This document shows, piece after piece, positions 3,638 through 31,558 of a stretch of DNA of 64,000 bases. A program made the position numbers and the translations under genes. The first letter of the stretch is position 1. Every line of letters starts with the position of its first letter. The notes under the pieces were generated by a model. The model searched no databases, had not been told where the DNA came from, and saw only the letters and a program-made list of their open reading frames with translations. Origin of the DNA: an uncultured delta proteobacterium (GTDB lineage Bacteria; Desulfobacterota; RBG-13-43-22); the NCBI GenBank assembly GCA_963838485.1, contig CAWIRY010000186.1, forward strand, positions 6,159 to 70,158, written 5' to 3'.

Positions 3638-4502
3638 TCTTGAAACCATGTCCTCCGGACATGTGGGCTGCCCCGGCTGCGGGGCGGCCATAGCCATGAA
3701 ATTTGTTTTAAAGGCCCTGGGCGAAAAGACCATGATGGTCCTGCCGGCTTGCTGCTGGTCCATCATTGCCGGGGCCTATCCGCAATCGTCCTTACGAATT
3801 CCGCTGATCCACAGCGCCTTTGAAACCGGAGGCGCCGTGGCCAGCGGTGTGCGAGCGGCCTTGGATATGAAAGGCGATACGGAGACAACCGTCCTGACCT
3901 GGGCCGGAGACGGCGGGACCTTTGACATCGGCTTTCAGGCCCTGAGCGGCGCCGTAGAGCGGAATGAAGATTTCATCTATGTCTGTTATGACAACGAGGC
4001 CTATATGAATACCGGGGTCCAGCGGAGCTCTTCAACCCCTTACGGGGCCTGGACCACCACCACTCCGGGTTCGGATTGGAAAAAGATGCGCAAGAAAAAT
4101 ATCGTCGAGGCCCTGGTGGCCCACCGTATTCCTTATGCCGCCACGGCCAGCATCGCCTTTCCAGAAGACCTGGTCTACAAAGTGAAAAAGGCCAAATGGA
4201 TCAAGGGTTCCCGGTTTCTGCACATCTTTTCCAGTTGCCCCACGGGCTGGGGGCTCCCTTCGGAGTTGTCGGTCAAGATCGCCCGAATGGCCGTCCAAAC
4301 CAATATATTCCCCCTCTATGAAGTGGAAGACGGCCTTCGCTATACGATCAACTATATGTCCAAAGGCTATCTGGTCCGGGAGTACTTCAAACTCCAGGGC
4401 CGGTTCAAGCACCTGACCGAGGAGGACCTGGATCAGATCCAGGAAATGGTCAACGAGGACTGGGAGCTTTTGTTGCGTAAAGCCGGCCTATTTCAGACTT
4501 GA
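3618..4502 (+). CDS. 2-oxoacid:ferredoxin oxidoreductase beta subunit (TPP/[4Fe-4S]-binding)
   Basis: GHVGCPGCGAAIA cluster motif and a GDGGTFDIG..CYDNEAYMNTG TPP-binding signature. Overlaps the alpha gene by 20 nt. Confidence 0.85.
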   Translation: MTMDLPDLETMSSGHVGCPGCGAAIAMKFVLKALGEKTMMVLPACCWSIIAGAYPQSSLRIPLIHSAFETGGAVASGVRAALDMKGDTETTVLTWAGDGGTFDIGFQALSGAVERNEDFIYVCYDNEAYMNTGVQRSSSTPYGAWTTTTPGSDWKKMRKKNIVEALVAHRIPYAATASIAFPEDLVYKVKKAKWIKGSRFLHIFSSCPTGWGLPSELSVKIARMAVQTNIFPLYEVEDGLRYTINYMSKGYLVREYFKLQGRFKHLTEEDLDQIQEMVNEDWELLLRKAGLFQT

Positions 4503-19107: not shown

Positions 19108-20527
19108 TCAAGGTTGGAGCTGTCGAGATTTGGGGAGGGTGACGATAAAAGTGCTCCCCTGATTCGGGAGACTTACGGCGGTGATGTCGCCCCCATGGGC
19201 CCGGGCAATGGCCCTGGCCAGACTTAATCCCAACCCGATGCCCTCCTGGGACCGGCTCAGGTCGCAGCGATAAAAACGTTCAAAAATGCGGGGAAGATCA
19301 TTGGGGGAAATACCGATCCCGGTGTCTTTGACGGTGATTTCTATGTGTTCCTCTTTTTCTTCAAGGGAAACGGTTACGGATACCTCCTGACGGAGTATAC
19401 TTGATGGCGTTATCCAAAAGATTGGAAAGCAGGCGCTGGATCATCCGGGTATCACCTTTCAGGCGGCTTCTCTCCGGCAGATCACAGCGCAAATGCACTC
19501 CATTATCTTCCGCCGTGGGCAAAAAGAGTTCACAAGCCTTTTGCAGCAGGGCGGTCAGGTTGATTTCTTCTACGGATAAAGGGCCTACCCCTGATTCGGT
19601 TTTGGAAATCAGAAGCATGGTGTTGATGATATCCAGGAGACGGTCGCATTCCTCGATGGTGCTGGCCGCCATGGTCTCATATTCGCTCAGGGACTTGGCG
19701 GTGGTGAGGGTTACTTCGGCGGTTCCGCGAATTCGGGTCAAGGGGCTTCTTAAGTCATGGGCGATGTGGTCGGTCATTTCTTTTATCTCGGTGAGAAGGT
19801 CCTGAATGCGGTCAAGCATTTGATTAAAGGTAAGGGCCAGTTGATCGATTTCGTCGCCCCGACCCTTGAGGGGGACCCGTTCTTCCAGGGTACCTGCGGA
19901 TATCTTTTGAGCGGTTTGGGTCACCGCCTCCACCCCGGATACGGCCCGACGGGCCATGAACCAACCCAAACCGGCGGCCACCAGGATGAGGAAGGTCATA
20001 GTGATGATGAAAATTCCCTTAAAGGCGGCCAGAAAGCGGGAATAACTCTCCATGGCCTGGCCGACCTGCAGAATGATGGTGGGACTGATCATGGCGTAGA
20101 GGATACGGACCTTATCCGGGTGATCCGGGATGGTGATGGTCTCAAACACCGGCAGGTTGTCACGAAGCATTCCCTGGATGGCCCCTTCGGTAATATCGAT
20201 ATTTTTCCAATAGGACATATTGGATGAAGAAAAGACCTGGCCGTTCAGGGAGAGGAAGCGAAAGAAGACCTTTTTCACGCCGGCGGCCTGGGCCTCCACA
20301 AGGGCCGCGCTTTTAACGGCCTCAACGCCTTCGGAAGCCAGGAGGGTTGAAAAGCGATTGACTTGTCCCAAAAGATCCTGGTCGGTCTGGGTTCGCATAA
20401 AGGTGGTTATGAGCATATAAAACAGGAGGAAGGCCACACAAGAGGATAGAGTGAAGATCCCGGCATACCAGAGGGTCAGCCGAAAGGCCAGGGTATGGCG
20501 CAGATTAATCGGATTCCTTAAGGACAT
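19108..20527 (-). pseudogene. HAMP-containing sensor histidine kinase (CusS/heavy-metal-sensor-like), frameshifted near its ATP-binding domain as assembled
   Basis: ORF 19361..20527 ends ..NLLDNAIKYTPSGGIRNRFP*. The next frame continues VSVTVSLEEKEEHIEITVKDTGIGISPNDLPRIFERFYRCD..GLGLSLARAIARAHGG.. to a stop at 19108. Removing one G near 19379-19390 restores ..TPSGVSVTVS.. Confidence 0.8.
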
Positions 20528-21258: not shown

Positions 21259-23389
21259 CTAAGCATTCTGCAAGGCCTTGAGATAAAATTTATCAATATA
21301 CTCTTTAACCATCCGGCGGGCAGAGAACCTGGGGGCGTTGGTTTTTATGGATTCTTTCATCACCCGGATCCAGCCGTGGGGCAGGCCATTATTGGACAGT
21401 TGGTAAAATAAAGGGATGATTTGTTTTTCCAACAGCTCATAGATCGCCTGGGCATCTTGGGGATCTCGGTCCCCGGCTATTTCTTTTTCACCAAAGGCCC
21501 AGCCGTTTTTCCCGGTATATCCTTCCACCCACCACCCATCCAGGATACTCAAATGAGGGACCCCGTTCAGGGCGGCCTTCATCCCGCTGGTCCCGCTGGC
21601 TTCCATGGGGGGCAGGGGATTGTTCAGCCAGACGTCGACCCCGTGTACCAGGTATTGGGCCAATTGTTCCCCGTAATCTTCGACAAAGGCGACCCGCCCT
21701 CCCATCTGGAAATCTTTGGGCGGCGTTAAACACCCGCTGCAGGACCCGTTTTCCCGGATCATCGGCCGGGTGGGCCTTGCCGGCAAAGATGATTTGTATT
21801 GGCCGCCGGGGATCATTGAGCATTTTTTTAAATCGCTCCAGGTCCTGAAAAATCAAATCGGCCCTTTTATAAGTGGTGAAACGGCGGGCAAACCCGAGGG
21901 TCAGGACCGACGGGTCCAGCAAGGTCCCTCCGCTTAAAATGGTCGAGGGGTTGACCCGGTCGGCGGCCCAGCGCTGGCGGGCCTTCTCCCGGATGATGTT
22001 GATCAATTTTAACTTCAGCCAGTAATGGGTCTTCCAAAGCTCCTCATCGGGGATGGTTTCCACCTTCTCCCAGACCAGGGGGTCATCATGGTCGGCCAGC
22101 CAGTCCGGCCCGAGATATTTATTAAAAAGGAGTTCCATCTTTGGTTCAATCCAGGTCGGGACATGAACGCCGTTGGTGACGTGATCGATCGGCACGTTCT
22201 CTTCCGGCATTTGGGGCCAAAGCCCCTTCCACATGCGCCGGGCCACTTCTCCGTGTCTTTTACTGACCCCGTTGCTAAAACCAGAGAGCCTGAGGGCCAG
22301 GGCGGTCATGTTAAACCCGGAAGTTGGATCCTCAGGATGGATCCCCAATTTGAGGAAGGCATCGTGATCAATGCCTAAGGTCGGCCAATAGGAACGGAAA
22401 TATTTTTCGATCAGGGGGAAAGGAAAGATATCATGGCCGGCCGCGACCGGAGTATGGGTGGTAAAGACCGAGGTGGGCCGCACCCGTGAAATAGCTTCCT
22501 CATAAGGCATTCCCTCCTGGACCCGCTCCCTGACCCGCTCCAGGAGGGCGAAGGCGGGATGTCCCTCGTTCAAATGTAAGACCGTATGCTTAATGCCTAA
22601 AGCCGAAAGCACTTCATAGCCGCCGATGCCCAGGACGATCTCCTGGCGCAAACGCTGCTCCAGGTCGCCAATATAAAGATGGGCCGATATCCCCCGGTTC
22701 CAGGGATCATTGATCGGGATATCCGTATCCATCAGATAGAGCGAGATGCGGCCTACGGCCACTTTCCAAACGGCCACATGGATCGGGGGTTCGATAAAAG
22801 GGATCTTGACGACCATTTGGTCTCCGGCCTCACTCAAAACCCGGGTAATCGAGGCCGCATCACGATCCAGGATTTCATCCGGATTTTCCTGCCAGCCGTC
22901 CTCGCGAATCTGCTGCCGCAGATAACCCTCCGGATACATAAACCCTACGGACACCATGGGCACCCGGAGATCGCTACATTCTTTAAGATAGTCACCGGCT
23001 AAGAACCCCAAGCCTCCGGCATAAAAAGGCAGGGAATTATGCAGCCCGTATTCGGCCGAAAAATAGGCGATAAAATGGGTTTCCGCATCGGGGATCCTCT
23101 CTACAAAACAATTTTCCTTCGTCTCCTGATCCCGGCGGAATTGTTCCAGGACCGAATCATAGTGTTGAAGATATTCCGGATTATGGGCAGCTTCCTCAAG
23201 AATTTCACCGGGAAGCTCAGAAAGGACCTGGACCGGATTATGCCCGCTCTCCTTCCAGATCTGGCGATCCAACATTTTAAAGAGCATCCTGGCGGCCGGA
23301 TGCCAGCTCCACCAGAGGTTGGCGGCAATTTCATTAAGACCCTTTAGCTTTTCCGGAATATGAGGGAATTGTTTTTTGCTGTCATCCAT
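21259..23389 (-). pseudogene. glgP: Alpha-glucan (glycogen/maltodextrin) phosphorylase of the GlgP TIGR02094-like type, frameshifted as assembled
   Basis: ORF 21488..23389 has an N-terminus (..NLWWSWHP..) typical of alpha-glucan phosphorylases. ORF 21259..21816 carries ..GGRVAFVEDYGEQLAQYLVHGVDVWLNNPLPPMEASGTSGMKAALNG.. The frames join as ..VFNAAKDFQMGGRVAF.. if one base is removed near 21708-21724. Confidence 0.8.
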
Positions 23390-23610: not shown

Positions 23611-24689
23611 TTATAAGTTTTTCCGAACAAAGGGCTCACATTGCCGGGTAAAACCGATCAGTTTTTCCAGCTTTTCTTTGGCCCGGCCCGAGTCGATGGA
23701 ATCTTCCGCCCTCTTGATCCCTTCGTTAAAGGTTTTATCCAGACCCACGGCCATAAAGGCCGCGGCGGCATTCAGCAGGACCATTTCCCTCTTGGCGCTC
23801 CGTTCCCCGTGTAATAACGCCCGAATTATTCCGGCATTCTCAGCGGCGTTTCCCCCTTTGATGTCCTCGGGCATGGCCCTTTTGAAGCCCACCTCTTCAG
23901 GAGAAAAATCAAAGGTATTTACCCGGCCGTTTTTAAGATGGGAAATGTGGGTAGGGCCGCAGATGCTGATCTCATCAAAGGTCCCTTCCCCGCAGACCAC
24001 AAAGGCTTCTTTGGTCCCCAGGTGTTGCAGGACCAGGGCCATTTTTTCAGTCAACTCCGGGGCATAAACCCCCAGGACATGGGCCGCGGCCCCGGCCGGA
24101 TTGGTTAGGGGACCCAGGAGATTAAAGATCGTTCGAATCCCTATCTCCTGTCTGGGTTTGGCGGCATATTTCATGGCCCCGTGAAAAAGCGGGGCAAAGA
24201 GAAACCCGATGCCGATTTCCTGGATGCATCTTTCCACGTCGGTAGTGGTCAGGTTTAAATTGACCCCCAGGCTTCCCAGGACATCGGCGCTGCCGCACCT
24301 GCTGGAAACCGCCCGGTTGCCGTGCTTGGCCACCTTGACGCCAGCCCCGGCGGCCACAAAGGCCGTGGCCGTGGAGACATTGAAGGTCTTAGTGCCGTCG
24401 CCTCCGGTGCCGCAGGTATCCAGAATGGTTTCTTCTTCGATGTTGATCTCATCCCGGTCAAGGTTGATCAGGTGGTTTTTCAGATTGATCCGGATAGACT
24501 TGGCCCGCATGGCCCTGGCCGCCCCGGTGATCTCGGCCACCGTCTCCCCCTTGAATCTCAGAACCGTATGAAGGCCCCTATCTGGGCTTCGCTGGCCTGG
24601 CCGGTCATGATTTGGTCCATAATCCCTTCCATCTCTTTTTCCGTCAGATCCTTGCCGCTGACGATCCTGGTTATTGCTTCTTTGATCAT
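23611..24689 (-). pseudogene. trpD: Anthranilate phosphoribosyltransferase, N-terminal 43 codons out of frame as assembled
   Basis: ORF 23611..24540 has CGTGGDGTKTFNVSTA and KHGNRAVSS. Upstream, an ATG at 24689 (RBS ggagg) encodes [41 protein letters not shown] and then hits a stop. Adding one base near 24561-24570 gives ..[24 protein letters not shown].. Confidence 0.85.
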
Positions 24690-24858
24690 TTTTTTCCTCC
24701 TTGATTTAAACCCCCAGCCGGGGGCGGCTCGGCACCATTCTTATAAAGGTGTTTGCATCTAAACGTTTTTGATCAGCTTGTTGAAAAAATATTTTTAACC
24801 TCTTGCTGATTCATCCTTGGAATAAAAAGGATGTTTTTTCATCGGCCTAAAAATAAAA

Positions 24859-24890
24859 AGGCCGTGAATTTTCCTTCACGGCCTTTTTTT
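24859..24890 (-). terminator. Second intrinsic terminator hairpin (B) in the trpD leader, bidirectional in form
   Basis: On the minus strand: A7-GGCCGUGAA-ggaaaa-UUCACGGCC-UUUUUAUUUUU. Its A-run plus 5' arm can pair instead with the 3' arm plus U-run of hairpin A. Confidence 0.6.
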
Positions 24891-24900
24891 GCGCACAAAT

Positions 24901-24939
24901 AAAAAAAGCCGTGGAGAACCGGAGCGGTCCCCACGGCTT
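24901..24939 (-). terminator. Attenuator terminator hairpin (A) downstream of the Trp leader peptide
   Basis: On the minus strand: AGCCGUGGGGAccgcuccgguUCUCCACGGCU followed by U7. Its 5' arm CCGUGGG can pair with CUCACGG inside the leader ORF. Confidence 0.7.
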
Positions 24940-24957
24940 GATGATGAATAAATCAGG

Positions 24958-25032
24958 TTAGCGGTGGATAAACCCCTCCCGTGAGTTCTGCCACCACCAC
25001 CAGCTATTCGATAATATGGGTCTTTGGTTCAT
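24958..25032 (-). CDS. trpL: Tryptophan leader peptide MNQRPILSNSWWWWQNSREGFIHR
   Basis: A 24-codon ORF with four consecutive UGG codons. AGGAA lies 9 nt upstream of the ATG. The ORF sits between a near-consensus promoter and a terminator, about 270-340 nt upstream of the trpD ATG on the same strand. Confidence 0.7.
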   Translation of the reverse strand: MNQRPILSNSWWWWQNSREGFIHR

Positions 25033-25062
25033 CGTCAAAGATTCCTAAAAAAGTTGACTACT

Positions 25063-25091
25063 ATAATACCAGACCCCTTAATCCAGGTCAA
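25063..25091 (-). promoter_or_regulatory. Sigma70-type promoter for the trp leader / trpD transcript
   Basis: On the minus strand: TTGACC (25091-25086), a 17-nt spacer, then TATTAT (25068-25063). Confidence 0.5.
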
Positions 25092-25147
25092 CCGTTTTTT
25101 TACGGATGGTCATTTTTTTGAGATTTCCCGTAGCCCCTTTCCTTTAC

Positions 25148-27085
25148 CTATAATTCCCAGGCGGCCCTGGCCCCCTCTTCGACGGCCTCGATGATCCGCC
25201 GGGGTCGGAGGGCGTCGCCGATCACCGCATAGGGAATCTTTAAGGCATCCAATGGGCCTTTCAGTCCGTCCCTGGCCTTCAAGCCCACGGCCAGCACCAC
25301 CTGATCGATAGGAGATAAGGTCGTACCCTGCCCATCAGTCTCGATCTCTACGCTTCCCTCGCTGATCGATTTCAAGGTCGTGTTGAAAAGCAGACGACAA
25401 TTCTTGTCCCGCAGACGCGTATGGAGCATGTAGCCGTGGGAGGTGATCTTCAGCACCGGTGAGCGCTTGAGCATCTCCACCAGGGTTACCTGGCTGCCTT
25501 GTTCGCTCAGGAAATCGGCCGTCTCCATGCCGATCAAGCCGCCGCCGACGACCAGGACATTCTTTCCCGGTTTAACGTGACCGCCCAGGACCTGCCAGGC
25601 ATCGCAGACCTGGGCCTTATTGCTTCCCGGTATGGGAGGGATGATCTTCTCCCCGCCGGCGGCCAGGATGACAAAGCCGGGGCGATTTTCCCGGAGCAGG
25701 GATTCAGTAACGGTCGTTCCGTTTTTAATCGTGACCTTGGACTTCTTGACCTGATCGATCTGCCAGTCGATCCACTCACCGTAGATCTTCTTGTGGGGCG
25801 GTATGCGGGCAAAGCGGATCTGGCCGCCCAGATCCTTCTCCTGTTCGAAAAGGGTCACCCGGTGCCCCAGACGGGCCGCCTCATAGGCTGCTGTCAAACC
25901 TCCGGGGCCTGCTCCTACCACCCAGACCTCCTTGGGTTCGAAGGACGGACCCTGGGGGTAGATCGTCTCCTGGCCTGTTTCCGGGTTGATGGAACAGCGG
26001 ATATTGCCCTCGCCTAAAATCTCTCTTTCGATGCACCCCTGGTTGCAGGCGATGCACTTTCGGATATCGGCCGTTCGTCCGGCCCTGGCCTTGATCAGAA
26101 AATCCGGGTCGGCCAGAAATTGTCGACCGAAGGCCGCCAAATCGGCATCGCCCCGGCCGATCACCTCATCGCCCTGGGTCGGATCGGTGAACCGGCCGAC
26201 GGCAATGACCGGAACATCAACCACGTCTTTTACTTTTCTGGCCAGCCAGGCGTTAAAACCCGGCTCGTATTCGGCCGGAGGCGAGGTAATCCCGGCCGGG
26301 CTGCCGTGGGTGCCGAAGGAGGCATGGATGAGGTCGCCCCCGGCCCGGACCATATCGGGCAGGATGGTCTGCATGTCATCGGCGGAGTACCCGCCCCTGA
26401 TGGATTCCTCCGTGGATATCCGCAAGGATAAGGGGAAATCAGGACCAACTTTTTGCCTGACCTCTTTGATGACCTCGAGGACGAAACGGGACCGTTCCTT
26501 TAAAGTCGATCCTCCATACCCGTCGGTCCGCCGGTTAGACAGGGTTGAGAGAAACTGGGTCAGGAGATAACCATGGGCGCAGTGGATCTCCACGGCATCA
26601 AAACCGGCCTCCCGGGCCCGGGCCGCGGCTGACCCGAAAGCGGCGATGGCTTCTTTAATATCTTCCAGGGTCATCTCCCGGGGTGTCGTGCGAAAGACAA
26701 TGCTCGGAATGGCCGAAGGCCCCAGGGCCTTCCCCTGGGACCCCAAGAAATGACTCTCCCTGCCGGCATGATGGATCTGCATGGCGATCTTGGTCCCGGC
26801 CTCGTGGGCCACGGAAACCAGTTTCTTCAGCCCGGGAATAAACCGGTCTTCGTAGGCGCCAAGTTGATTGGGGCTGACGATGCCCATGGGATGAACCCCG
26901 GCTATTTCGGTGATGATCAATCCCGGTTCCCCTTTGGCTCGGCGTTTCATATAGGCCAGGTTCTCGGCGCTGACCGTGCCGTCGGGATTGCCCAGGTTCG
27001 TACCCATGGGGGGCATGACCACTCGGTTAGCCAGTTCCATGGATTTGATGGACATGGGTGATAAGATATGGCTCAAACTACTCAT
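25148..27085 (-). CDS. Old-yellow-enzyme-family NADH:flavin oxidoreductase with a C-terminal FAD/NAD(P)-binding domain (2,4-dienoyl-CoA reductase FadH-like)
   Basis: N-terminus ..ELANRVVMPPMGTN.. and HCAHGYLLTQFLS (OYE TIM barrel). Cys motif CIACNQGC. GAGPGGLTAA and VVGGGLIGME dinucleotide folds. Confidence 0.85.
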   Translation of the reverse strand: MSSLSHILSPMSIKSMELANRVVMPPMGTNLGNPDGTVSAENLAYMKRRAKGEPGLIITEIAGVHPMGIVSPNQLGAYEDRFIPGLKKLVSVAHEAGTKIAMQIHHAGRESHFLGSQGKALGPSAIPSIVFRTTPREMTLEDIKEAIAAFGSAAARAREAGFDAVEIHCAHGYLLTQFLSTLSNRRTDGYGGSTLKERSRFVLEVIKEVRQKVGPDFPLSLRISTEESIRGGYSADDMQTILPDMVRAGGDLIHASFGTHGSPAGITSPPAEYEPGFNAWLARKVKDVVDVPVIAVGRFTDPTQGDEVIGRGDADLAAFGRQFLADPDFLIKARAGRTADIRKCIACNQGCIEREILGEGNIRCSINPETGQETIYPQGPSFEPKEVWVVGAGPGGLTAAYEAARLGHRVTLFEQEKDLGGQIRFARIPPHKKIYGEWIDWQIDQVKKSKVTIKNGTTVTESLLRENRPGFVILAAGGEKIIPPIPGSNKAQVCDAWQVLGGHVKPGKNVLVVGGGLIGMETADFLSEQGSQVTLVEMLKRSPVLKITSHGYMLHTRLRDKNCRLLFNTTLKSISEGSVEIETDGQGTTLSPIDQVVLAVGLKARDGLKGPLDALKIPYAVIGDALRPRRIIEAVEEGARAAWEL

Positions 27086-28023: not shown

Positions 28024-30429
28024 ATGACCTGGGCATCAAACTGCACGGTAGTCTCACCCACTCAGTTGTGGTCGGCCGCTTCGACCCTTTCTCCCCGCGT
28101 GCAACAGCTTCGCCGGCAATTCTGGTCCTTTTATGAGCGGGAATACACCAACGAAGTGCGCGCTTACACCACCGGCACGCCCTGGGATGTGGTCTATTCC
28201 ATCTGGAGTTGGACCAATGTGCCCGAGATCGCCCTGTTCCAGCAGGGGTTCCGCAGTTATCTCCGGGCCGCGGCCAAGACCGTCGAGTTACCGTCCGATT
28301 TTTGTGAAGAGCCTCTGGTCGTTCGCCAGGCCCTTTTCTTTCGTCAAGTCGTACAGGCCTGCTTGCCGGTTGAAATCCTGCAGGGGGAGCTGATTGTCGG
28401 CTCCCATTTCAATACGGCCCTTTCGCGCTGCCTCAAAAAAGATGAAGCCCGTTCCCGGGACCGGGAAGAACAAAAATTCCTCGAAGCTTGGAATGAACTC
28501 AACAAGGCCGGGGTGGGAAACTGCGGCGCCGTTCCCGGTCACCTGGTGCCCAATTATCCCAAGGTCCTGAGGGTCGGCTGGAAAGGGATTGAAGATGAGG
28601 CCCGGGTTATCTTCAATGATCCGGCGAGTTCAATGGAGCAAAAGAACCTGGCCCGGGCCGTCATGATTTCCGCCGAGGCCGCCCGCGATCTGGCCAGTCG
28701 CTATGCCGATAAAGCCCAAGGCCTGGCTGAGATTGAAGCCGACCCGATTCGCTGGGAAGAGCTCATCGGGATCGCCCGCATCTGCCAAAAAGTCCCCTGG
28801 CTGCCGCCCGAAACATTCCCAGAGGCCCTGCAAGCCCTCTGGTTCACCCACATGTTGGCCATGGCCGCTGAAAGCTATCCGGGGCCGGGCCTGTCGCCGG
28901 GACGGGTGGACCAGTACCTCTATCCCTATTACCGGGCGGATCGAGAGGCTGGCCGCCTGACGAATCAGGCCGCCCGCGAGTGGCTGTACTGCTGGTGGAT
29001 CAAGCACAACTATGTTTATGATTATCAGGGCTGGACCGGCACCAATCAGGGCATCAATTCATCCTTCGGCCAGCTCATCACCCTGGGCGGCATGGATGCC
29101 CAGGGCAACGACGCCTCCAATGAATTGACCTTTCTGATGCTCGAGGTGATCGAGGAGATGAACCTCCTGGAGCCCAAGCCCAACATCCGCATCCACGCCC
29201 GCACCCCCGATAAATTACTCGACCGCCTGGTGGCCATGTTGGCCAGAGCCCAGGGTTCCCCCTTTCTGATCAATTTTGACGAGAATGCCATGGCCGGGCT
29301 TGGATGGCAGGGCCTGCCTGAAGAACGCCTCTGGGATTACGCACCGGTGGGCTGTCTGGAGAACACCCTGGCCGGCGATGACCGCTCGGGCACGGTGGAT
29401 GTGAACCTGAATCTGGCCAAGGCGATCGAGCTGGTTTTAAACGATGGCCGCGATATGGCCACGGGCAAACGTATCGGACCGCGCACCGGTGACCCTAAAG
29501 AGTTTCCAGGGTTTCCCCAGTTTATGGAGGCCTTTAAACAACAACTCCAAGCCATCCTCTTGAAGCTCATCGCCGCCAACAACCTGGCCGACGCCGGCCG
29601 GGCCCGGTGGGAACCGGTGTCTTACTTGAGCGCCCTGGTGGACGGCTGTCTGCAAAGCGGCCGTGATTGCAACGCCGGCGGGGCTCAATATAATTTTCTG
29701 ACCGTGGAAGGGGTGGCCCTGGCCACGGTGGCCGACAGCCTGGCGGCCATAAAAAAGCTGGTCTTTGAGGATCACCAGGTGGAAATGGGGAATTTGGTTG
29801 AAGCGATCCAGGCCAATTTTGAAGGCCAGGAAAGCCTGCGCCGGATGTTGCTGACCAAGGCCCCCAAGTACGGCAACGACGATGGATATGCCGATGAGAT
29901 CGCCCGGGAGGTCAGCCGCTTTTGGACCGAAGAAGCCTTCAAACATTTTTCTTCCACGGGGAAGCGCTACCGGGGCGGTTATCTTTCCTGGAATTACTGG
30001 ATTGCCTATGCGCCGTCAACGGCCGCAACGCCGGACGGCCGCCGCCGGGGACAGTTTCTCTCCAACGCCGTCTGTCCGGTCAACGGGGCCGATTGCCAAG
30101 GGCCGACCTCGGTCATCAAGAGTGTGGGCAAACTGGGACTGGAGACCGCACCCAACGGGTCCAGCCACACCATGAGTTTCAGCCCGACCTTGTTTCGCAG
30201 CCCCGAGCAACGCCAAAAACTGAAGGCGCTTTTACGGGCCTACGGCCAGGTGGGCGGAACCTGCCTGCAGGTCAACATGATAGACGCCGAAACCCTGCGG
30301 GAGGCCCAAAAGTTTCCCGACGAATATCAGAATTTGCTGGTGCGGGTTACGGGTTACAACGCCTATTTTGTCGGCCTGGGCAAGGAAATTCAGGACGAGA
30401 TCATTGCCCGTGAGTCGCACCCGGTTTAA
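28024..30429 (+). CDS. Glycyl radical enzyme (PFL-like superfamily), eliminase/dehydratase-like active-site pattern, substrate unknown
   Basis: 801 aa. The C-terminal glycyl radical motif is ..LLVRVTGYNAYFVGL.. The Cys loop ..APVGCLENT.. has a C-x-E arrangement, as in the 1,2-eliminase-type GREs. Strong RBS (gggagg). An activase gene follows. Confidence 0.85.
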   Translation: MTWASNCTVVSPTQLWSAASTLSPRVQQLRRQFWSFYEREYTNEVRAYTTGTPWDVVYSIWSWTNVPEIALFQQGFRSYLRAAAKTVELPSDFCEEPLVVRQALFFRQVVQACLPVEILQGELIVGSHFNTALSRCLKKDEARSRDREEQKFLEAWNELNKAGVGNCGAVPGHLVPNYPKVLRVGWKGIEDEARVIFNDPASSMEQKNLARAVMISAEAARDLASRYADKAQGLAEIEADPIRWEELIGIARICQKVPWLPPETFPEALQALWFTHMLAMAAESYPGPGLSPGRVDQYLYPYYRADREAGRLTNQAAREWLYCWWIKHNYVYDYQGWTGTNQGINSSFGQLITLGGMDAQGNDASNELTFLMLEVIEEMNLLEPKPNIRIHARTPDKLLDRLVAMLARAQGSPFLINFDENAMAGLGWQGLPEERLWDYAPVGCLENTLAGDDRSGTVDVNLNLAKAIELVLNDGRDMATGKRIGPRTGDPKEFPGFPQFMEAFKQQLQAILLKLIAANNLADAGRARWEPVSYLSALVDGCLQSGRDCNAGGAQYNFLTVEGVALATVADSLAAIKKLVFEDHQVEMGNLVEAIQANFEGQESLRRMLLTKAPKYGNDDGYADEIAREVSRFWTEEAFKHFSSTGKRYRGGYLSWNYWIAYAPSTAATPDGRRRGQFLSNAVCPVNGADCQGPTSVIKSVGKLGLETAPNGSSHTMSFSPTLFRSPEQRQKLKALLRAYGQVGGTCLQVNMIDAETLREAQKFPDEYQNLLVRVTGYNAYFVGLGKEIQDEIIARESHPV

Positions 30430-30496
30430 TGGAATCCTAAAAAGTATCCATCCGGAAACTATAACTTTCAGGATGGAGCGCTCAGCCATCAGCTTT

Positions 30497-30565
30497 TAGC
30501 TTTCAGCAAAATCCTTTATCATTGGGGAGTTTGGCTAAATGCTGACCGCTGACTGCTGAAAGCTA
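30497..30565 (+). repeat. Stem-loop built from gctgaaagc-type repeats between the GRE and activase genes
   Basis: TAGCTTTCAGC (30497-30507) pairs with GCTGAAAGCTA (30555-30565). Flanking gctga/cagc repeats extend the arms (30483-30570). Confidence 0.45.
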
Positions 30566-30613
30566 TCAGGAAATCTTGGATTTCCGGATGAAAACTAAAA
30601 AGGTTGACAGACT

Positions 30614-31558
30614 ATGACTTCCGGCCTGATCTTCAATATCCAGCAATTCAGCACCGAAGACGGACCAGGCATCCGAACCACGGTCTTTCTTAAAGGCTGT
30701 CCCTTGCGCTGCCCCTGGTGTCACAACCCGGAAGGCCTGCGCCTCAGGCCCGACCTGATGTGGTACGATGTGCGCTGCATCGGAGCCAGAGATTGCCTGA
30801 GCGCCTGCCCGGAAAAGGCCTTATCCCTCTCCTCGGAAGGGATACGGATCGACCGGGAGCGCTGCACCTTGTGCTGCCTGTGCGAGAAGGCCTGCCCGGC
30901 AGCGGCCCTGGAGGTGATCGGCCGTCCCTTTACCCCCGATGAATTGATGGACGAACTTTTGAAAGATCAGGTTTTCTATGAGACCTCAGGCGGAGGCATC
31001 ACCTTCAGCGGCGGCGAGCCGATGTTGCAGGGGGAATTCCTCAGCCAGGTTATGATGCTCTGTAAACAGGCCGGGATGCACGTAGCCCTGGATACCAGCG
31101 GTGCCGTCTCCTGGGAGCGCTTTGAGCCGGTCTTACCCTGGGTGGACCTGGTGTTGTTCGATTTAAAAATCATGGACAGTGAGCGTCATCAACAGGCCAC
31201 GGGCCTCTCAAACACCATCATCCTGGAAAATGCCGGGCGAATGGCTGCCAGTGGAAAACCGATGTGGATTCGAACGCCGATCATCCCCGGTTTTACCGAT
31301 GATGCGGAAAATATCCGGGCTATCGGCGGTTTTATCAGTCAAGCTTTGCCCACGGTGCAGCGTTGGGACTTGCTGGCCTATACCAATTTGGGAAAACCCA
31401 AATATCATCGTCTCGACATGCCCTATTGGTTGGAAAGGACGCCACCGTTGACCCGAGCCGAAATGGAAACCTTACATCAGGCCGCTGTTGAACTGGTGCC
31501 GACGGCTTTATGGTCCGGGGCGGCCAGGCAGAATCAATCGCCATCATCGGAAGACTGA
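30614..31558 (+). CDS. Glycyl-radical enzyme activating enzyme (radical SAM) with a ferredoxin-like 2x[4Fe-4S] insert
   Basis: FSTEDGPGIRTTVFLKGCPLRCPWCHNPE (CX3CX2C). The insert carries CIGARDCLSACP and CTLCCLCEKACP. GGGITFSGGEP SAM motif. Confidence 0.9.
   Translation: MTSGLIFNIQQFSTEDGPGIRTTVFLKGCPLRCPWCHNPEGLRLRPDLMWYDVRCIGARDCLSACPEKALSLSSEGIRIDRERCTLCCLCEKACPAAALEVIGRPFTPDELMDELLKDQVFYETSGGGITFSGGEPMLQGEFLSQVMMLCKQAGMHVALDTSGAVSWERFEPVLPWVDLVLFDLKIMDSERHQQATGLSNTIILENAGRMAASGKPMWIRTPIIPGFTDDAENIRAIGGFISQALPTVQRWDLLAYTNLGKPKYHRLDMPYWLERTPPLTRAEMETLHQAAVELVPTALWSGAARQNQSPSSED

Follow-up and report, generated by a model that had tools for sequence, protein, structure and literature searches.

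A putative Trp attenuator with six RNA segments and two serial terminators upstream of a lone trpD gene in an uncultured delta proteobacterium

Background

The E. coli trpL leader consists of a short open reading frame (ORF) with tandem UGG codons, RNA segments that form alternative 1:2, 2:3 and 3:4 pairings, and a terminator before the first trp gene; a ribosome stalled in the ORF frees the antiterminator strand. Here we describe a leader of related design on the minus strand of a 64-kb stretch of DNA (64,000 nucleotides, "the window") from an uncultured delta proteobacterium, where it lies upstream of a lone trpD gene. Judged from its sequence and that of its relatives, it is likely to be a ribosome-mediated Trp attenuator, in which a relay of six RNA segments controls two serial terminators (hairpins A and B), and a copy of a trpE-operon leader now standing before trpD.

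Like the enterobacterial trpL leaders, this one has a Trp-codon leader ORF, alternative pairings, an intrinsic terminator and an antiterminator strand that a stall would free. In contrast to E. coli trpL, the family to which it belongs (without sequence or covariance-model similarity to trpL) carries three to four W codons where trpL has two, places the leader stop codon ~20 nt before the terminator, and chains a second terminator to the first via a further alternative helix. For the his attenuator of Salmonella and E. coli, Johnston and coworkers reportedly proposed in 1980 a six-segment model in which pairings A:B, C:D and E:F alternate with B:C and D:E. The present family would share this three-hairpin relay that shifts by one segment on a stall, and its Desulfatiglans-type members have exactly this arrangement. 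In the his attenuator, however, only the last hairpin terminates and a different amino acid is sensed, whereas here and in most of the Desulfobacterota family the middle hairpin terminates as well, being a full terminator whose U-tract is invariant. A comparative survey of 2010 by Lopatovskaya and coworkers is said to treat "chains of RNA helices" in attenuators.

The tandem T-boxes of Firmicute trp operons are a known case of two terminators in series. Two THI elements stand in tandem before Desulfovibrio thiSGHFE, with two serial terminators (PMC545781), and Salmonella mgtCBR has tandem attenuators in a two-ORF leader (PMC3641672). All of these share with the leader described here two termination checkpoints in one leader and a tighter off state, but they have one sensor per terminator, whereas here a single W-run ORF would serve both. 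In Sinorhizobium meliloti, whose trp genes are dispersed, trpL attenuates a solitary trpE(G), and the released small RNA rnTrpL acts in trans (PMC6614838). This system is alike in being a Trp attenuator on a single trp gene with a tandem-W leader, but it has one terminator and its target is trpE(G), not trpD.

Layout of the leader upstream of trpD

Between an oxidoreductase gene and trpD, the minus strand carries in order a promoter, the leader ORF, hairpin A, hairpin B, a spacer and trpD. The features (window positions) are as follows.

25095–25101, minus strand: A-tract resembling an UP element, upstream of the –35 box (A31–A36 of the window row invariant in six aligned relatives)
25086–25091, minus strand: –35 hexamer TTGACC (promoter scan; TTGAC invariant in six relatives)
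25063–25068, minus strand: –10 hexamer TATTAT with an upstream TG (TG-n-TATTAT; promoter scan and conservation)
25042–25046, minus strand: Shine-Dalgarno sequence AGGAA of the leader ORF, 9 nt before its ATG (sequence reading)
24958–25032, minus strand: leader ORF of 24 codons plus stop, ATG start, MNQRPILSNSWWWWQNSREGFIHR (translation)
24991–25002, minus strand: segment 1, four UGG Trp codons, the putative sensor, pairing with untranslated segment 2
24960–24979, minus strand: segment 2, GGAG-G-GGUU-UA-UCCAC-C-GCU, last 20 nt of the leader ORF
24908–24937, minus strand: hairpin A, segments 3 and 4, stem of the first intrinsic terminator (folding, conservation)
24901–24907, minus strand: U7 tract of terminator A, also partner of the A-run before B
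24872–24918, minus strand: alternative segment 4:5 hairpin, the putative anti-terminator of B
24855–24888, minus strand: second intrinsic terminator, hairpin B (segments 5 and 6) together with the A and U runs at its flanks (terminator scan)
24849–24859, minus strand: U-rich tract of terminator B, UUUUUAUUUUU (sequence and terminator scan)
24690–24848, minus strand: spacer of 159 nt between terminator B and trpD

The two promoter hexamers are 17 nt apart and match the consensus at 10 of 12 positions; the A-tract, TTGAC, the 17-nt spacing and TATnAT are kept in close relatives, and the transcript would start near 25056. A preliminary description of this DNA, made from its letters and ORFs, had already placed this promoter and the 24-codon ORF with four consecutive UGG codons, and both are present as placed, with promoter and W-run conserved in relatives. 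Segment 2 ends at the first base of the leader stop codon, from which an A/U-rich linker of 20 nt leads to hairpin A. The stem of A has ~13–15 bp and one bulge; its place and its U7 had been given correctly, but it extends beyond the GCCGUGG/CCACGGC first recorded. Ten bases separate U7 from A7 (24890–24884), and the stem-loop proper of hairpin B (GGCCGUGAA / UUCACGGCC) occupies 24883–24860. A7, hairpin B and the U-run were likewise found where expected, except that the U-run extends to 24849, 10 nt past the lower bound formerly set.

These elements are beyond chance, because the four-UGG run (TGGTGGTGGTGG) occurs once in the window (0.01 expected), the pattern GCCGTG...CACGGC+T-run is found in the window at A and B only (0.00 expected), and the leader fold has z = –4.9 against shuffles. 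In the 5′ arm of hairpin A (24925–24931, minus strand) the window reads GGGGA-CCG where close relatives have GGAGAGCCG, so that the arm is one base shorter than theirs and the stem is bulged.

A second promoter-like site (TTGACG, 16 nt, TATTAT; 10 of 12 matches) lies at 25011–25038 on the minus strand, inside the start of the leader ORF. It is probably a chance match, because its –35 box is not conserved in L001, the closest locus among relatives (loci in relatives carry L numbers); if used, it would give an untranslatable leader and termination always. The spacer between B and trpD was without significant structure (fold z = –1.34), so that a structure hiding the ribosome-binding site of trpD was not supported, and a promoter scan of this strand found no promoter-like site in it. 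On the plus strand of the spacer there is a terminator-like hairpin at 24812–24833 (CATCCTT...AAGGATG followed by TTTTTT), with no plus-strand gene upstream of it.

Alternative pairings of the leader RNA

A structural alignment was made of 48 leaders of the subfamily to which the window belongs, and duplex energies were calculated for 125 leaders. The RNAalifold consensus of the 48 leaders contains three hairpins, 1:2, A (3:4) and B (5:6). In the window, the 1:2 hairpin (UGGUGGUGG with CCACCGCUA, –20.8 kcal/mol) joins the Trp codons to the pre-stop segment, a pairing absent from the preliminary description, while A folds at –21.5 to –24.6 kcal/mol and B at about –21.0 kcal/mol.

Segment 2 can pair with the loop and the entire 5′ half of A (24938–24921), and the resulting 2:3 helix (–23.3 kcal/mol) falls little short of A (–24.6 kcal/mol) in stability. 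With a UGG codon in the A site of a stalled ribosome, segment 2 free and the 3′ arm of A not yet made, the 2:3 helix was the lowest-energy fold of the nascent RNA for a stall modelled at any of the four W codons. A ribosome modelled at the stop codon covered segment 2, and A and B formed. The antiterminator had previously been sought in CUCACGG, pairing with CCGUGGG of A. This pairing can be drawn, but CUCACGG was unpaired in the predicted folds and is not conserved, reading CUCGAGG, CUCAAGG or UUCAAGG in close relatives. It was rejected as the antiterminator, the true element being segment 2; constrained folding thus returned terminators A and B as anticipated, but with segment 2 instead of CUCACGG in the stall fold.

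The read-through register, in which 2:3 and 4:5 are both formed, had 90.8% of its cells paired in the 48-leader alignment, compared with 44–60% when the partners were slid by 1–3 columns. One pair of this register switches from A-U (21 sequences) to G-C (19 sequences), and the pair counts of segment 2 include a compensatory pair, col38–col103. Over the 125 leaders, the 2:3 duplex averaged –19.3 kcal/mol against –12.2 kcal/mol for dinucleotide shuffles, at most 5 of 100 shuffles being as good in 77% of leaders. Because subfamilies are unlike in their linkers and in the distal portion of the 2:3 helix, column-wise covariation over the family was dropped, and duplex energies of cognate and non-cognate partners were compared instead. 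Cognate 2:3 partners gave –19.3 kcal/mol and non-cognate ones –15.4 kcal/mol (margin 3.9); for stem A the values were –22.7 and –18.6 kcal/mol (margin 4.1). The margin of 2:3 equals that of a true stem, indicating that segment 2 is an antiterminator that co-varies with segment 3. Lineage-specific sequences keep the pairing in L120 (GUGAUGUCCACCUG with UGGGUGGACAUCAA), L170 (GGGUUAUGUCCAC with GUGGGCAUAACC), L082, L024 and L013.

Five features of a trp-type attenuator were found at this locus: a short ORF with consecutive Trp codons (WWWW, with Shine-Dalgarno sequence and ATG, the W-run being conserved); an intrinsic terminator between leader and gene, here twice (A with U7, B with its U-run) and both times conserved; a mutually exclusive antiterminator, segment 2, that a ribosome would cover at the stop codon and free on stalling; regulatory codons that pair with the antiterminator strand (1:2, in the 48-leader consensus); and a downstream gene for biosynthesis of the same amino acid, trpD in the window and the trpE operon, trpD or trpB2 in relatives. 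As in a his-type relay, three hairpins can re-pair as two that are shifted by one segment.

We infer how the ribosome stalls, in which order the helices form in time and how the leader responds to Trp as follows. When Trp is replete, the ribosome would reach the stop codon and cover segment 2; when the leader is not translated, segment 1 would pair with segment 2. In either case hairpin A would form and terminate transcription, and any polymerase that escaped would meet B. When charged tRNA-Trp is scarce, the ribosome would stall on the UGG run, covering segment 1 and leaving segment 2 free to pair with the loop and 5′ half of A while polymerase has yet to make the 3′ arm. That arm, left unpaired, would together with U7 capture the A-run and 5′ arm of B; with 2:3 and 4:5 formed, neither terminator would form, and transcription would proceed into trpD.

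Coupling of hairpin B to hairpin A

The partners of the 4:5 helix are the 3′ arm of A with U7 (24918–24901) and the A-run with the 5′ arm of B (24889–24872). The preliminary description had recognised this pairing, which is real, but as a bulged helix; it is better described as 13 contiguous pairs, one of them G-U. In the window the 4:5 hairpin has –18.5 kcal/mol against about –21 kcal/mol for B. Over the whole helix 88.4% of cells were paired in the 48 leaders, each of its 12 core pairs being present in at least 23 of the 48 and most in at least 43. The mean over 125 leaders was –18.8 kcal/mol, compared with –10.0 kcal/mol for shuffles, and at most 5 of 100 shuffles were as good in 92% of leaders (2 of 100 for the window).

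B is flanked by A and U runs like bidirectional terminators, and the 4:5 helix hardly co-varies (cognate –18.75, non-cognate –17.8 kcal/mol), its core being the same everywhere in the family. One could therefore suppose that only A is regulated and that B is an independent backstop, unregulated or bidirectional, whose likeness to A is fortuitous or left over from a duplication. We consider this improbable, for several reasons. B sits 20–80 nt before trpE in most loci, and an unregulated strong terminator so close would silence the operon in more than 100 genomes. Among 38 loci chosen by TrpD similarity and not by hairpin sequence, CCGUG was found in 35 A arms and 34 B arms. The conservation of this B-arm sequence across orders favours coupling, because an independent terminator needs no such sequence. 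In L055, the one lineage with a changed A (CCGCAGG...CCUGCGG), B has become GCCGCAGGG and segment 2 GCCUGC, so that A, B and segment 2 change together.

In five further loci (L057, L058, L061, L065 and L066; three of them labelled Desulfatiglans or Desulfatiglandales), A lacks its U-tract and is followed by UAAAA, and the leader lies ~2.2 kb upstream of trpD. The 4:5 helix is nevertheless kept there, with 10–13 contiguous pairs, –17.7 to –20.1 kcal/mol and none of 200 shuffles as good. Because B is the sole terminator behind the W-run leader in these loci, the stall signal must pass through A. Coupling of B to A through the 4:5 helix, as originally proposed, is thus supported by conservation, by one co-varying lineage and by the logic of the architecture.

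The arms themselves are unusually invariant. This is explained by the fixed UGG codons, which dictate CCACC in segment 2, then GUGG in segment 3, and so onward to B, giving a chain of complementarity that runs UGGUGG, CCACC, CCGUGG, CCACGG, CCGUGA, UCACGG.

Comparison with described RNA families

Covariance models of Rfam run over the window gave no family at the gathering threshold. The gammaproteobacterial Trp_leader (RF00513) had no match at threshold in the window and none at E up to 10 in 24500–25300, and the T-box model likewise stayed without a match up to that E value. The score of the trpB motif (RF04312), a candidate riboswitch known from Firmicutes and Fusobacteria (PMC11109978), was 30.9 bits (E = 0.032) over 24849–24935, short of its gathering threshold of 59 bits. 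Membership in any of these three families was rejected, none reaching threshold. The trpB motif is alike in having two hairpins, the second a terminator, and in standing sometimes upstream of trp genes, but no leader ORF is described for RF04312, and it belongs to other phyla.

This weak likeness, together with the invariance of the arms, might suggest that the CCGUGG hairpins are bound by a trans-acting factor (a TRAP-like protein, a tRNA in T-box-like contact, or a small molecule acting on a riboswitch) and not governed by a ribosome. Such a factor seems very unlikely, given that no Rfam family was reached at threshold, that the W-run ORF comes with a Shine-Dalgarno sequence, with a start codon and with conserved distances to its stop codon and to the hairpin, that the invariance follows from the complementarity chain starting at the invariant UGG codons, and that 2:3 covariation fits RNA-RNA pairing.

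One leader peptide with two chained terminators, or this leader family, was undescribed in Rfam and in the literature searched, and an earlier description is possible. The kind of attenuation is known; the relay from one sensor to two terminators looks new.

A Trp-leader family in Desulfobacterota

Relatives were collected by a TrpD-relative scan (80 loci, mostly from metagenome-assembled genomes of Desulfobacterota), by a pattern scan for the W-run plus first hairpin, which added more than 119 further loci, and by a second detector blind to hairpin sequence, which gave 154 W-run leader candidates. Two terminator-like hairpins were present in 122 of these 154 candidates, one in 29 (several of which were detector misses) and three in 3. 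The loci added by the pattern scan come from Syntrophales (Smithella, Syntrophus), Desulfobacterales, Desulfatiglandales, Syntrophobacterales and some Spirochaetota. Among the carriers of the leader is a cultured one, strain NaphS2 (L039). In 125 two-terminator leaders the first downstream gene was trpE (104), trpB2 (9), trpD (7), trpG (1) or unassigned (4). The leaders preceding trpE belong to a trpEGDCFBA operon. The W-run leader and tandem hairpins also precede a stand-alone TrpB-like PLP enzyme (TIGR01415 / NF009057, trpB2) in L086, L089, L109, L110, L122, L143, L149, L152, L195 and others, from Spirochaetota, Syntrophales and other groups, which suggests that the leader defines a small Trp regulon.

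The first W codon typically stands 12–16 codons ahead of the stop codon, and the linker from the stop codon to A is ~20 nt. Five T columns of the U7 tract (T105–T109 of the window row) are invariant in 48 of 48 leaders. Alignment of the upstream regions of relatives, which had been named as a check on the attenuator, showed the W-run ORF and the stems conserved, with compensatory change, and the W-run ORF, hairpins, promoter and spacings are conserved in more than 100 related trp loci, in agreement with a ribosome-mediated Trp attenuator.

The closest locus, L001, has the order leader, trpE, trpG, trpD, trpC, trpF, trpB, trpA, and its leader peptide (MTPKNILSNNWWWWQISREGFIHR) is homologous to the leader ORF of the window. 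Window positions 25101–24849 (promoter, leader, A and B) are 84% identical to L001 1250–1510. The window TrpD is ~90% identical in protein to that of L001 (trpD DNA 86%), the other closest TrpD relatives being 82–86% identical. Besides the stretch from promoter to B and trpD, nothing matches between the two loci. Because of these matches, the window is taken to carry the usual operon leader of its clade, set immediately before trpD, and on these alignments its element is an ordinary member of a widespread Desulfobacterota Trp-leader family, found in sulfate-reducing and syntrophic bacteria. In L001, the trpG-trpD intergenic region (3760–4000, ~240 nt) contains repeated CAAG(T/A)T(T/G)CAAG-like motifs.

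The trpD gene and frameshifts in nearby genes

The trpD gene of the window is in two frames.

24567–24689, minus strand: trpD codons 1–41, ATG frame, with the ATG at 24689 (ORF list, translations, tblastn against L001 TrpD)
24567–24568, minus strand: 1-nt deletion in trpD, codon 42 (alignment with L001, L002 and L200)
23611–24567, minus strand: trpD codons 42–359 and stop, shifted frame, 318 codons (translation, tblastn, Pfam Glycos_transf_3)

The ATG at 24689 had been reported correctly, but the frameshift had been missed: the ATG frame stops after 43 codons, at 24558. The missing base is in an Ile codon, where the window has TTCAT-ACGG and the three relatives TT(T/A)AT(C/T)ACGG. Programmed frameshifting was rejected, as there is no slippery heptamer at the site and the change is a plain 1-nt deletion relative to these relatives. 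Once repaired, the product is anthranilate phosphoribosyltransferase (TIGR01245, 410 bits; cutoff 199).

Directly downstream of trpD, a gene for an alpha-glucan phosphorylase (DUF3417 + Phosphorylase; 21259–23389, minus strand) is also frameshifted, being split into overlapping ORFs in different frames (21488–23389 and 21259–21816). In the histidine kinase gene that follows (19108–20527, minus strand) the ORF ends within the ATPase domain (...LLDNAIKYTPSGGIRNRFP and stop), the portion with the G2 box (GLSLARAIARAHGG...) being found at 19108–19233 in a different frame. Because three broken but otherwise well-conserved genes lie within ~5 kb, the breaks in trpD, the phosphorylase and the kinase are rather likely to be indel errors of the assembly and not decay. 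The one-base-short 5′ arm of A may be another such error. A same-species copy with which to compare the frameshift was sought by exact protein look-up and by exact DNA patterns in genome and metagenome collections, and none turned up.

The deletion in trpD lies outside any homopolymer, relatives have decayed copies of the operon (L052 and L260, below), and the 64-kb window holds no other trp gene, as had been noted from the start. The unit might accordingly be read as the decaying relic of a duplicated trp operon, with trpD a pseudogene and the leader regulating nothing useful. This is unlikely in our view. Both halves of trpD are otherwise open, and the protein identity to L001, compared with the lower DNA identity, indicates purifying selection; promoter, leader and the two hairpins have been preserved in full; the neighbouring frameshifts point to the assembly; and trpD is intact in seven other solitary loci (L010, L013, L028, L035, L047, L063 and L194).

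A working attenuator of trpD remains the preferred account, and several points weigh against it. Beside the near-absence of covariation in 4:5, equilibrium favours the terminator state (–55.7 against –43.4 kcal/mol), so that the model requires co-transcriptional kinetics, a condition common to all attenuators. As assembled, trpD is frameshifted, and the leader may regulate a dead gene; if the assembly has indel errors, the lengths given for U7 and A7, like the bulge in A, may not be dependable either. The gap from B to the gene is 159 nt in the window compared with ~30–60 nt in most relatives, and an unrecognised internal promoter may exist in this long gap. In sum, the preliminary view of a Trp attenuator with coupled terminators before a lone trpD holds in outline, with one pairing corrected and the 1:2 hairpin added.

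Origin of lone trpD units

Lone leader-trpD units, with no other trp gene nearby, were found in the window and in L028, L013/L035, L010, L047, L063, L125, L188 and L194. They are scattered in the TrpD tree among operonic relatives. One genome bin contains L032, a full operon, as well as L013, a lone unit. In L010 and L047, the last ~40 codons of trpG are kept between B and trpD. A similar trpG remnant in the spacer of the window was not supported, the best tblastn match being 6 residues (E = 0.7).

L052 (3143–5821) and L260 (2242–5484) each contain a leader, fragments of trpE, trpG, trpF and trpA and an intact trpD, to which L260 adds trpC. They look like half-decayed operons, intermediates toward lone leader-trpD units. 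The simplest reading of these arrangements is that the operon was repeatedly duplicated and that all but the leader and trpD was then lost. That the whole amounts to an undescribed helix domino with one sensor and two terminators across Desulfobacterota, together with a lone trpD that is recurrently the last survivor of duplicated operons, is put forward tentatively, at somewhat less than even chances.

Genes upstream of the leader

25148–27085: FMN/FAD oxidoreductase of the 2,4-dienoyl-CoA-reductase type (Oxidored_FMN + Pyr_redox_2 domains)

About 1 kb upstream of this gene, on the opposite strand, lies a pair encoding a glycyl-radical enzyme (PFL-like + Gly_radical, 801 aa) and a radical-SAM activase (window 28024–31558, plus strand).

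Significance

The leader follows the textbook enteric logic of ribosome stalling, here built in a different phylum. If the relay is true, the leak in the off state would equal the failure of one terminator multiplied by that of the other, although both would be released together, and Desulfobacterota would share a conserved, uncatalogued design with a multiplicatively tighter off state. Rfam lacks this family, which is large and well conserved and could be entered there as a new RNA family. It could also help in annotating Trp regulons (trpE operons, lone trpD, trpB2) of Syntrophales, Desulfobacterales, Desulfatiglandales and some Spirochaetota. The repeated retention of only trpD from decaying operons poses a puzzle over the rate-limiting step of Trp synthesis; if a lone trpD recurrently survives, TrpD dosage would be specifically limiting under Trp starvation in these anaerobes.

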